This document shows, in pieces, positions 31,840 through 63,687 of a stretch of DNA of 64,000 bases. The notes beneath the pieces are model-generated. The model searched no databases. It saw only the letters and a program-made list of their open reading frames with translations, and was not told the DNA's origin. Each line of letters opens with the position of its first letter. The first letter of the stretch is position 1. A program made the translations under genes and the position numbers. The stretch comes from a phage: the sequence record PZ452606.1. The stretch is one strand, 5' to 3'.

Positions 31840-32172
31840 TTATTTTACTACTTTCCAGTGCTTCATGTCAAGTTTACCAACTTTTTTCATCTTCTCAATT
31901 AAGCGTTCGGCACGTTGGCGAGCTGTAACATAATACCATTCACCTAATTCATTTTGTTCAATTTTTCCAACGATTACTGTATTCAATTCATAAATCCAAC
32001 CAGTAAAGAAATTATGAACTTGAATTGTAAAGGTGAAATCTGTTCCCATACCTTCTGTTGTTTCTACTTCAATAATATCACCTTCAACTGCCATTAAGAA
32101 CCACATAGTTTCATCATATTTACCATTGAAGCATTTAGTTTTAACTGCAGCGTTCAGATTAATCGTTTTCAT
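31840..32172 (-). CDS. hypothetical protein (30.8 position)
   Basis: 110-aa ORF. Confidence 0.6.
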   Translation of the reverse strand: MKTINLNAAVKTKCFNGKYDETMWFLMAVEGDIIEVETTEGMGTDFTFTIQVHNFFTGWIYELNTVIVGKIEQNELGEWYYVTARQRAERLIEKMKKVGKLDMKHWKVVK

Positions 32173-32258
32173 TTTATTCTCCTTTGTTTGTGTAAGATAA
32201 TACTATCACAAAGGAGCTATACTGTAAACAACTTTGTGCAATCTTTGGAAAATAAAAA

Positions 32259-32278
32259 AGGACTCCCGAAGGAGTCCT
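32259..32278 (-). terminator. rho-independent terminator after the 58-aa basic protein gene
   Basis: AGGACTCC-CGAA-GGAGTCCT, followed on the - strand by TTTTTTATTTT. Confidence 0.75.
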
Positions 32279-32282
32279 CAAC

Positions 32283-32459
32283 TTATGCTTTCTGCTTACC
32301 AAAACGAGAAGCATCATCTCGAAGAACCGCACGTGCTCGGCGCATGATCTTCTCAACAGTTTGATTGATACGAGAGTTCGACCCACGCTTGTAACCAGCG
32401 CGTTTAGAATCACCAACTTTCTTTTCAACTGCTTTCTTTGCTTTAACTTGTTTTGCCAT
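32283..32459 (-). CDS. small basic protein (58 aa; 30.9 position)
   Basis: Track ORF 32283-32501; ATG at 32459 gives MAKQVKAKKAVEKKVGDSKRAGYKRG..., Lys/Arg-rich; strong terminator (hairpin + T-run) just downstream. Confidence 0.5.
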   Translation of the reverse strand: MAKQVKAKKAVEKKVGDSKRAGYKRGSNSRINQTVEKIMRRARAVLRDDASRFGKQKA

Positions 32460-32747
32460 TATAAATTCTCTTTTAAACGAAAATGCAGGACTTATTGGCA
32501 TTGCCTGCGAAAGCCCTCAAAGGGGTACTTAGGTTTTGAATATTTACCGACAGGATAACCATAAACCCGTCATCATACCACCAAGACTTACACAGATAAC
32601 ACTTTTCTGACGCATGATAGTAACATTCAAGAGGTACACCGTAAAACTGCCGGGGTCTTAAAACTATAATGATTCGCAAATCATTAATCAGACAGTTCGA
32701 CGGCTCCTCGATTTTAGCTCACACTAAGGCAGTGAATCTCCAATAAA

Positions 32748-32996
32748 TTACTTCAGTGTTACCACAAAGTGACGAACTGCTTTTCGTGCAGCAGAAGCCA
32801 GAGGCTTAGCATATTTAAGTTCATCTTTTTCCTGAAGCTCAGCAGCTAATGCAGTTTGAGCAGGATTCAGATGTTTGAAATAACGCAGGATTTCAAGAGC
32901 TTCGGCTTCAACATCAATAGATGCGCCATAGTTTTCGTGACCATTATTCCATGCGTTTCGTTGCAGTTCAAGAGCGTGTTGTAATTGTTTAATCAT
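32748..32996 (-). CDS. rIII: rIII lysis-inhibition accessory protein
   Basis: 82-aa ORF MIKQLQHALELQRNAWNNGHENYG...; size and position (upstream of gene 31) match T4 rIII. Confidence 0.88.
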   Translation of the reverse strand: MIKQLQHALELQRNAWNNGHENYGASIDVEAEALEILRYFKHLNPAQTALAAELQEKDELKYAKPLASAARKAVRHFVVTLK

Positions 32997-33143: not shown

Positions 33144-33479
33144 TCACTTATAAAGACACGGAATAGCTTTATAATGACAGGTAACGAATTTTTGTTTAAT
33201 TTCTTTTGGCTGCTTAAGACCCAGAGCTACAAAAGGATGCGGAACATTTCGAATTTGACCAACTGGAAGAGAAGTCAAATCACCAACTTCGCAGAAACCT
33301 TCAGGAACATCAGGACCGACAGAGTGAACTACACACAGTTCAGGAACTTCACCTTGAACACGTTTACCGATGATAAGTCCTGATTCTGTAACTTCTTCAT
33401 CACCGGCTTGTGCAGGTTCAGAAACTAAAATAACATATTCACCGACAGCACGAATTGGTAGCTGTTGTACTTCAGACAT
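33144..33479 (-). CDS. 31: co-chaperonin gp31 (GroES-like)
   Basis: 111-aa [25 protein letters not shown]...; matches T4 gp31 length and sequence as recalled. Confidence 0.93.
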
Positions 33480-63385: not shown

Positions 63386-63468
63386 AGACCTTCCCCTTAT
63401 GTTTCTGTTTGCGATTAGATTCTTTAAACGCTTTCTTCTTATCTTTATGAACAGAAGCTTTATTAAAA

Positions 63469-63687
63469 TTATGCTTTGCGACTAAATTGTTCATAGTGCT
63501 GAATTACCTCTCTCAAACATTTGCATGTGAATGAAAACTTTTTAGCTACACCACATTCAAATATGTGTTCTCTTAAATCACATGTATCGGTATATCCCAT
63601 CTCAACAATAAAATGCCGTATTAGATTTTTATCTTTATCATTGAGAGAATTAAAATAATCAGATTTTGAATTAATTTCCCTGGCCAA
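63469..63687 (-). CDS. hypothetical Cys-rich small protein
   Basis: 72-aa ORF with C..C...C.C pattern. Confidence 0.5.
   Translation of the reverse strand: MAREINSKSDYFNSLNDKDKNLIRHFIVEMGYTDTCDLREHIFECGVAKKFSFTCKCLREVIQHYEQFSRKA

Follow-up and report, generated by a model that had tools for sequence, protein, structure and literature searches.

A structured RNA core, gained and lost between coliphage families, in the rIII–30.9 spacer of a T2-like phage

A modular spacer between rIII and gene 30.9

What occupies the gap between rIII and gene 30.9 in a T-even phage, and does it act as a single leader of 30.9? We addressed this question in a stretch of 64,000 nt of phage DNA (record PZ452606.1; hereafter, the window). 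Identity over this region is 99.8% with Shigella phage Sf22 and ~99% with T2, and the phage is a Tequatrovirus (T2/Sf22-like). A preliminary description had remarked on a stretch of ~290 bp without a convincing ORF and proposed that it forms a structured 5′ UTR of the gene for a 58-aa basic protein or, alternatively, a small non-coding RNA. The stretch measures 288 nt (32460–32747) and is the longest of its kind in the 64 kb. When all ORFs of 55 aa or more that start with ATG are mapped on the two strands, only three stretches of at least 150 nt are left uncovered within the window, the rIII–30.9 gap among them, and one of the others (63386–63670) is probably coding via an ORF with a TTG start. 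The surrounding genes and signals are as follows:

33144–33479, minus strand: gene 31 (ORF list, T2/T4 annotation)
32748..32996, minus strand: rIII, 82 aa, the upstream gene (ORF list; annotated as rIII in T2, T4 and Sf22)
32283..32459, minus strand: gene 30.9, 58 aa, Lys/Arg-rich (ORF list, T2/T4 annotation)
32258–32279, minus strand: strong intrinsic terminator after 30.9 (terminator scan: 9-bp stem with 5 G-C pairs, UUCG loop, T-run)
31840–32172, minus strand: gene 30.8 (ORF list, annotation)

The terminator had been noticed earlier 3′ of the 58-aa gene, and the terminator scan confirmed it.

At the same position, the gap of T4 is 244 nt long, and its length ranges from 120 to 467 nt over 24 other Tevenvirinae loci found in IMG/VR through gp30.9. 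The arrangement rIII–spacer–30.9 is constant across genera; the order and presence of modules within the spacer vary. In the annotation records examined, the spacer is left empty or given spurious small ORFs. We aligned the spacer of the window with those of T4, RB32, SA79RD, RB69 and phiC120 (alignment A3), and widened the comparison to VR7, LilPanda, fHe-Yen9-01, VPA32 and the 24 IMG/VR loci. In these alignments, the gap resolves not into one leader but into a mosaic of non-coding RNA modules, each oriented like the genes. Its parts in the window are listed below.

32713–32747, minus strand: module 0, a short hairpin module with a UCAC/GUGA stem and the loop UGCCUUAGU (alignments A3, A5 and A8)
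32627–32712, minus strand: module A, the structured RNA core, 86 nt (covariance-model match of 113 bits)
~32578–32622, minus strand: module B, an early-promoter-like insert of 44–45 nt (alignment A3)
32460–32577, minus strand: proximal 30.9 leader, ~120 nt, with C1, H2 and H3 (alignment)
32549–32571, minus strand: C1 hairpin, GACGGG/CCUGUC, with the 11-nt loop UUUAUGGUUAU (directly after the −10-like element)
32514–32525, minus strand: H2, a small G+C hairpin in the CCCC-UUU-GAGGG region (sequence; conserved in alignment A3)
32485–32508, minus strand: H3, GCAGG-14 nt-CCUGC followed by AUUUUCGUUU (sequence; just upstream of the ribosome-binding site)

The first bases of module 0 are TTTATTGGAGATT, the 13-mer that flanks a T4-derived insert in Justusliebigvirus (see below). 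Module 0 has relatives in VR7, fHe-Yen9-01, LilPanda and VPA32, with stem changes (CGC/GCG, UGC/GCA) that were read by eye, and is missing in RB69. Two possible identities for it were rejected: a tRNA-Gln relic, as the similarity is confined to a 13–14-nt stretch (microhomology), and a mimic of the type I-F CRISPR repeat, as the stem of the repeat is not preserved. Module B is missing from T4 and RB32. A further module of ~135 nt, module D, is found in many genera and is missing from the window; this second RNA, larger than the core and likewise unclassified, comprises a covarying kissing-loop plus GNRA hairpin and occupies the same slot in other Tevenvirinae genera. The 3′ neighbor of the core is module C in T4, module B in the window and module D in phiC120. 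As this neighbor differs between phages, the core needs no fixed neighbor.

The promoter-like elements of the preliminary description stood in part. The element TGGTATGAT contains a −10 hexamer, TATGAT (32572–32577), with a −35-like GTTATC (32595–32600) located 17 nt upstream. The T4/PST early-promoter consensus is TTTACW-N17-TAYWAT (PMC4122927), to which GTTATC-N17-TATGAT is close, its −35-like part being supplied by module B. The other element, GTTTTAC, is located ~60 nt upstream of that site, inside the 3′ strands of helices P3 and P2 of the core, and is not the partner of this −10 in the window. A generic sigma-70 scan called no promoter in the gap, core included. The combination of module B and TATGAT is thus best described as a putative promoter, recognized by its likeness to the early consensus.

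C1 is present in every Tevenvirinae genus examined and covaries strongly, its stem being changed on both sides in nearly all of them (e.g. GUGGACG/CCCCAC, GUCGUAG/CUAGAC and GACGUGG/CCAGUC), and is probably the 5′-terminal stem-loop of the early transcript of 30.9. The authors of the SA79RD record annotated C1 as a terminator. The next two hairpins, GCAGG-14 nt-CCTGC (H3) and CCCC-ttt-GAGGG (H2), had been pointed out from the sequence of the window and are present there. Both are nearly invariant in T4, RB32, SA79RD, RB69 and phiC120, with related forms in other genera. H2 directly follows the rIII stop codon in several genera, and H3 is swapped in other genera for different stems at the same place (GGGAGC...GCUCCC, GAGAGGU...ACCUCUC). 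H3 resembles a weak terminator or attenuator and was not called by the terminator scan. The GGAAGA ribosome-binding site faces a CUCC tract in the non-coli genera. The ~120 nt next to the 30.9 ATG are always found with 30.9 and are 92–95% identical across genera, which equals or exceeds the identity of the coding flanks. This proximal leader (−10-like element, C1, H2, H3 and ribosome-binding site) could function as a regulatory 5′ UTR, and an autoregulatory role is possible for these ~120 nt.

Fold, conservation and distribution of the core

The core consists of a closed rod of ~17–19 bp, P1-P2-P3, with two small conserved internal loops. Carried on this rod are the P4 hairpin and a single-stranded, AU-rich stretch of 15–20 nt that is conserved. 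The elements of the core in the window are:

32706–32709 with 32631–32634, minus strand: helix P1 (covariance model, fold)
32700–32704 with 32638–32642, minus strand: helix P2 (covariance model, fold)
32691–32698 with 32644–32651, minus strand: helix P3 (covariance model, fold)
32679–32686 with 32667–32674, minus strand: helix P4, loop UGCG (covariance model, fold)
32687–32690, 32652–32666 and 32635–32637, minus strand: conserved unpaired UGAU, UAGUUUUAAGACCCC and GUA, respectively

P4 corresponds to the stem-loop AATGATT-tgcg-AATCATT (32667–32686) that had been noticed earlier, now seen as one part of a larger fold and carrying compensatory changes. The minimum-free-energy architecture is identical in four divergent versions of the core (T4-type, W70 and two Kuravirus-type versions, at ~80% identity). 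These versions, 86–98 nt in length, have z-scores of −2.1 to −3.7 relative to shuffled sequences; the whole 296-nt stretch folds barely better than its shuffles (z = −1.17).

The helices are strongly supported by covariation. In a MAFFT alignment of 18 distinct sequences, 98.4% of the cells are paired and double changes occur in 12 of 27 pairs; the corresponding values in a model-based alignment of 21 distinct sequences are 98.6% and 13 of 24, although sequence diversity is limited to ~5 lineages and, thus, many of these double changes trace to few evolutionary events. Shifting the 3′ partners by 1–3 columns as a control reduced pairing to 28–64% in the MAFFT alignment and 25–65% in the model-based alignment, with 0–2 double-change pairs in each. 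RNAalifold recovered the same helices independently. In W70 and Kuravirus, matched 2-nt insertions on both strands lengthen P3 by two base pairs, and VR7 contributes more compensations in P2 and P3. Stem-loops in the spacer are both conserved and covarying across related genomes, one of the checks named in the preliminary description. A search for additional tertiary or pseudoknot pairs among the unpaired columns gave only lineage-confounded correlations (e.g. columns 58/67).

Two of the base pairs are G·U throughout the alignment, and another is U·G in 11 of the 21 sequences. Since an invariant G·U would be C·A on the other strand, the core folds only as RNA of the sense (gene) strand, which favors an RNA over a DNA cruciform or an antisense product. 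The unpaired segments (A/GUA, C/U, UGAU and UAUAGUUUUAAG-ACCCC; ~30 conserved unpaired bases) are conserved above the helices. The core is also at least as conserved as its coding neighbors: between the window and RB69, it is 100% identical, compared to 88–89% for rIII and gene 31, and between the window and VR7 it is 89% identical, compared to 85% for rIII and 81% for 30.9. These sequence comparisons show the core to be an RNA domain that folds and is under purifying selection. The alternative of a small non-coding RNA, raised at the outset, fits this picture of a structured and conserved coding-strand RNA.

BLAST searches with the spacer matched 771 phage records, with one matching place per genome, and the covariance model found a single copy in the window. 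The core is always in the orientation of the flanking genes. Beyond Tequatrovirus, it is found in Mosigvirus, Gaprivervirus, Kuravirus, one clade of Vequintavirinae and Justusliebigvirus, and is common to T-even, phiEco32-like, rV5-like and phi92-like phages at ~80% identity. Every carrier infects E. coli, Shigella or a close relative; the core is missing from the sampled T4-type genera of Klebsiella, Enterobacter and Yersinia. It is also missing in RB32 and SA79RD, in the Jiaoda-, Teguna- and Karamvirus representatives, and from 19 of 25 IMG/VR loci encoding gp30.9, one degenerate remnant being found.

The surroundings of the core differ between these groups. In Kuravirus-type phages, the core is present in 28 of the 81 matching records. 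In 172-1, SU10 and XT18, it lies 8 nt after the stop codon of a 157-aa ORF and ~10 nt before a long hairpin and U-run; the large terminase gene comes next, with its ATG ~20 nt from the hairpin. phiEco32 and others lack exactly the core block of ~92 nt, a clean insertion or deletion. In the Vequintavirinae W70, A73 and A5-4, the core occupies a gap without annotation, directly 5′ of a tRNA-like element, and the tRNA run downstream of the W70-type core is Met, Tyr, Gly, Gln, Pro. Justusliebigvirus arall and PD06 contain a T4-derived copy inside a tRNA cluster, between tRNA-Gly and tRNA-Gln. This copy looks like a circularized T4 fragment integrated at a 13-nt microhomology and could be a neutral hitch-hiker of illegitimate recombination. 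Truncated copies in KBNP1711 and L082 keep the lower rod alone, which means either that the upper part can be dispensed with or that these copies are in decay. The core is a unit of gain, loss and horizontal transfer whose neighbors vary on both sides.

Searches for known relatives of the core were negative. Rfam 15 gave no match in 32460–32747 even at E up to 10, no gathering-level match in the whole window, and none in the homologous spacers of five other phages; matches to Atu_C8 and Phe-leader fell on the 30.9 terminator and were dismissed as noise. ARAGORN identified no tRNA or tmRNA in the window. When 5,426 complete E. coli genomes and 72,556 plasmids were searched with the core by BLAST, no match was obtained at E up to 1 and, thus, no host or prophage origin or mimicry is detectable at that sensitivity. 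Pattern scans of GTDB genomes and JGI metagenomes, and of IMG/VR for distant members, returned only T4-type or Kuravirus-type copies and chance matches; none of the core matches was in a GTDB genome, and those in metagenomes were on T4-type or Kuravirus-type contigs. Further candidates were rejected on sequence (L010–L013, L015, L019, L021–L023 and L027) or with the covariance model (L034–L037, L041, L042 and L088). The covariance model (R1) found nothing in the tRNA/rnaC/rnaD region of T4, and literature searches on the rIII/30.9 intergenic RNA, T4 small RNAs and T4 transcript maps gave nothing specific. By Rfam 15 and the literature searched, the core is an undescribed RNA motif; a catalogue of >10,000 candidate viral structured RNAs (PMC10690425) may list it.

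Possible roles of the core

Our leading proposal, held with belief and doubt in about equal measure, is that the core is an autonomous RNA that binds a host factor, as a decoy or modulator, and is not the operator of gp30.9. Judged by gene orientation, the only guide to its transcription and processing, the cassette of ~86–90 nt would be transcribed within the gene 31/rIII/30.9 message, downstream of the rIII stop codon, and may yield a stable, possibly processed, RNA domain. Its partner would be a component present in all these infections, for example a protein or RNA of E. coli. The same cassette is found in differing neighborhoods of unrelated virulent coliphages and is gained or lost cleanly, which suggests that it works by itself as RNA; since the host is what all carriers share, a host factor is the most economical partner. 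The lack of a fixed expression platform and of a consistent downstream gene argues against a riboswitch or attenuator, as the sequence 3′ of P1 differs between carriers (module C, B or D, the pre-existing terminator of Kuravirus, or the tRNA-like element of W70). The positions of the core fit an RNA that is released or stabilized as a discrete domain: in Kuravirus, the cassette would be at the end of the upstream message, before the hairpin and U-run, and in W70 it precedes the tRNA-like element, where processing of the RNase P type would be expected. The 3′ part of the spacer (32460–32626), with the early-promoter-like insert, C1, H2, H3 and the ribosome-binding site, would then be the actual 30.9 leader.

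The preliminary description had likened the whole 288 nt to the gene 32 operator, as one autoregulated 5′ UTR for the 58-aa protein. The evidence does not bear out this idea for the core, which ends 167 nt upstream of the 30.9 ATG and so does not abut the ribosome-binding site, with variable modules in between. Nor does it co-occur with the gene of the supposed binding protein, as it is missing from many gp30.9 loci and present in Kuravirus and Vequintavirinae. Sixty rows sampled evenly from ~1,000 tblastn records of gp30.9 homologues were all T4-type, with none from Kuravirus or Vequintavirinae. The genes downstream of the core differ by lineage (30.9, the large terminase subunit, tRNAs), and the core occurs independently of 30.9. 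The gp30.9 protein itself matches PHROG 1427 (function unknown) and has no Pfam family and no recognizable (RNA-binding) domain. As possible small basic partners beside the core elsewhere, the 57-aa Cys-rich ORF of W70 and the 157-aa ORF of 172-1, with its acidic tail, were rejected as unrelated to gp30.9.

These observations bear directly on the possibility that all 288 nt act together as a regulatory 5′ leader of 30.9, either as a riboswitch/attenuator or as an operator bound by gp30.9. A long structured spacer precedes 30.9 at every Tevenvirinae locus examined, the ~120 nt by the ATG are conserved across genera as described above, H3 and its U-rich run are just before the ribosome-binding site, and gp30.9 is very basic. 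However, the presence of the core does not track 30.9, the spacing, intervening modules and downstream genes vary between lineages, and gp30.9 lacks a recognizable RNA-binding domain; we regard a common leader function as improbable. It is very improbable that the core is a DNA-level or selfish element without RNA function, i.e. a PeSL-type recombination/promoter cassette or a neutral passenger, even though the spacer has clearly been shuffled by module, such shuffling in T4-type phages is documented to be driven by PeSL promoter-terminator cassettes (PMC2839356, PMC4122927), and the Justusliebigvirus copy has the appearance of an integrated T4 circle. Compensatory changes, the invariant G·U pairs and matched insertions maintain a one-strand RNA fold over ~20% divergence, the unpaired segments and the core as a whole are conserved above the helices and the neighboring genes, respectively, and no promoter was detected in the core. 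A short protein-coding gene that was missed or partly annotated is scarcely credible. SV76 is annotated here with an ORF of 28 aa and an antisense ORF of 25 aa, and KMB23 with one of 62 aa, and one frame of the core is stop-free in each lineage. These short ORFs do not, however, recur in the T2 or T4 annotations, the 44-nt module B indel breaks a 68-aa ORF between the window and T4, and the substitutions track base-pairing, not codon positions. The open frame also differs across P3 between the T4-type copies and those of W70 and Kuravirus, where the 2+2-nt insertions shift it between lineages, in keeping with the original impression that there is no conserved ORF. Both the DNA-level and the coding explanations are poorly compatible with the covariation.

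Cis-acting roles are harder to set apart. The core could be a transcription element resembling the HK022 put antiterminators, by which a polymerase started upstream would read through later hairpins and terminators: H3 and the 30.9 terminator in T-even phages, and the hairpin and U-run before terminase in Kuravirus. The core is always in gene orientation and upstream of terminator-like hairpins, requires no fixed adjacent sequence, and is carried by phages that all infect E. coli or close relatives, for which host RNA polymerase is a shared partner; with the Kuravirus hairpin ~20 nt from the terminase ATG, this gene must be reached by read-through. We nonetheless consider the proposal unlikely, as the core is one branched rod, not two stem-loops, the same terminase gene is expressed in phiEco32 downstream of the same hairpin and 30.9 is expressed in RB32 and SA79RD, all without the cassette, and no terminator directly follows the core in T4-type phages. 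It is likewise unlikely that the core is an RNA processing module, either a new self-cleaving ribozyme or a site for a host nuclease (RNase III, E or P-like), where cleavage would separate the rIII message from the downstream RNA or shield the upstream 3′ end from exonucleases. Small ribozymes are of comparable size, with conserved junctions and a patchy phage distribution, and the core resembles them in size, helix number, conserved junction nucleotides, patchy phage-to-phage spread and a position beside tRNAs in W70 and arall. Phage RNase III sites are rod-like helices with small internal loops, which the rod of ~17–19 bp recalls, but such sites need no ~30 invariant unpaired bases. The core matches no ribozyme model in Rfam 15, even at the permissive E-value used, and none of the hammerhead, twister, twister-sister, pistol, hatchet, HDV-like and hairpin families; its CUGAUUA differs from the hammerhead core, CUGAUGA, at the essential G, and there is no third helix. 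Cis roles that need no adjacent platform (polymerase modification, nuclease entry or block, self-cleavage) fit the same contexts equally well, and the put-like and processing explanations cannot be separated from host-factor binding by sequence alone.

Returning to an autonomous RNA that binds a host factor, a bolder version is that the cassette is an RNA-only mobile accessory gene, either a decoy or sponge that neutralizes a factor specific to E. coli or the first of a new small-ribozyme or ligand-sensing class. We find this version conceivable, though we doubt it. If it were true, a decoy might act on a nuclease or sensor used in defence, or on a regulator whose target is RNA polymerase, the ribosome or RNA decay, and the cassette would have spread between phage families because no phage protein partner is needed. 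With module D in the same slot, the rIII–30.9 spacer would be a dedicated locus for non-coding RNAs.

Significance and relation to known systems

T4 and T2 are among the best-studied genomes, yet the spacer RNA is unmarked in the records examined. Clean presence or absence between close relatives, combined with a covarying fold, is the signature of a selected accessory function. Such patterns have led to anti-defence genes, except that in this case the product would consist only of RNA. Phages that form natural pairs, one carrying the cassette and the other lacking it (T4 and RB32; 172-1/SU10 and phiEco32), make its role directly testable. The spacer, with its shuffled RNA modules, is also a useful case for the movement of non-coding cassettes between phages and corrects the picture of a long 5′ leader.

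Several known systems share features with the core. It may be compared to rnaC and rnaD of T4 (species 1 and 2 RNAs) as a small structured phage RNA of unknown function that would be made within a longer transcript, and the W70-type cassette is, like them, at the edge of a tRNA cluster; however, there is no similarity in sequence or structure, and the location in T-even phages is different. HK022 put RNAs consist of two adjacent stem-loops, are self-contained, ~70–90 nt long and without an adjacent expression platform, and are found upstream of terminators. The core would also be self-contained and lies upstream of terminator-like hairpins, but it is a single branched rod. In relation to Hfq-type 3′-UTR sRNAs, Kuravirus has a hairpin and U-run within ~10 nt of the core and the single-stranded UAGUUUUAAG is conserved, whereas the T4-type copies have no adjacent terminator.

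The T4 gene 32 operator is adjacent to the ribosome-binding site and moves together with its gene. The core is similarly a structured intercistronic RNA of T-even phages near a gene for a basic protein of the nucleic-acid-binding type, but it is separated from the ATG by the modules described above and occurs without 30.9. PeSLs are a stem-loop plus a promoter, acting as a DNA or transcription signal (PMC2839356, PMC4122927). Module B with C1, in which GTTATC-N17-TATGAT is followed by a covarying hairpin, resembles them, as does the shuffling of the spacer by module. In contrast, no promoter is detectable in the core, which crosses phage families and contains four helices that covary plus ~30 conserved unpaired bases; without a promoter, it is not a PeSL. 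The core is also like GOLLD and ROOL, orphan RNAs of Rfam that are conserved, covarying, patchy in phages and often found beside tRNA genes, although they are several-fold larger and have Rfam models. The core thus belongs to a known class, the orphan structured phage RNAs.

A second structured RNA in the rIII-30.9 slot

The spacer between rIII and 30.9 can also be occupied by module D, a second unclassified structured RNA of ~135 nt that is absent from the window.

Loci carrying module D
L054 (phage phiC120), 1302–1449: module D
L059 (phage LilPanda), 600–747: module D
L060, 582–729: module D
L068–L087: module D, in the alignment of these loci (A7)

Its carriers are distributed over many Tevenvirinae genera and include some Tequatrovirus and Mosigvirus phages. 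RNAalifold predicted 42 base pairs, with compensatory changes in half of them (21/42). Reading by eye identified a GNRA-capped hairpin (CUGA-GAAA-UCAG) and a covarying loop-loop pairing, which takes the forms GGCGAUGG/CCAUCG, UGAUGG/CCAUCA, CUAUGG/CCAUAG and CAAUGA/UCAUUG. Module D matched neither Rfam nor tRNAs.

Altered and relocated copies of the core

In T4, the equivalent of window 32572–32650 (L004, ~2150–2200) lacks module B, the promoter-like insert, and its loss brings the TTTTAC of the core RNA (3′ strands of P3/P2) to within 18–19 nt of AATGAT; the same two elements are ~60 nt apart in the window. Judged from this spacing, the T4 core may contribute a weak −35-like element.

Two independent truncations of the core were found, in KBNP1711 (L047, 1508–1549) and in L082 (1032–1073). 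Both have lost P3–P4 and retain the lower rod with its two internal loops; either no more than this rod is needed for function, or the copies are decaying.

The copy in the Justusliebigvirus phages arall (L005, 2990–3420) and PD06 (L009) is a circularly permuted T4 fragment when compared with window 32460–32830. It runs from module 0 (the short hairpin module) through the core, module C (directly downstream of the core in T4), the first 4 nt of 30.9 and the last 81 nt of rIII to a TAA. The copy is bounded by a duplicated TTTATTGGAGATT, which also makes up the beginning of tRNA-Gln together with its 5′ flank, and it looks like a mini-circle integrated at microhomology. The fused ORF arising from the T4 fragment is annotated as a “lysis-inhibition accessory protein” in the PD06 record.

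W70 (L006, 3105–3192), A73 and A5-4 carry, 14 nt past the core, a tRNA-like element that is unannotated. Its GCGCGGG/CCCGCGC stem continues to ~19 bp, and it includes a T-arm-like segment, GGTTCGAGTCC; ARAGORN made no call for this element. Unannotated stretches in Listeria phage LPML1, in Klebsiella phages KpS8 and P8734, and in the jumbo phage EC.P1 match these ~85 nt.

Database records and resemblance to a CRISPR repeat

The 58-residue gp30.9 ORF (window 32283–32459) is recorded as “1,4-alpha-glucan (glycogen) branching enzyme, GH-13-type” in many GenBank phage records and as a baseplate or head protein in others; these labels are evidently propagated annotation errors. gp30.8 is encoded at window 31840–32172 (Pfam Phage_30_8, E = 7e-59), whereas no 30.8 is annotated between 30.7 and 30.9 in the T2 record LC348380 (L003), which looks like a small difference in gene content from a very close relative.

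Within module 0, ATTCACTGCCTTAGTGTGAGCTAAAATC (window 32713–32745, minus strand) resembles a type I-F CRISPR repeat, GTTCACTGCCGTATAGGCAGCTAAGAAA, in the 5′ 9-mer and the 3′ AGCTAA. As the stem of the repeat is not preserved in ATTCACTGCCTTAGTGTGAGCTAAAATC, the likeness is probably due to chance.
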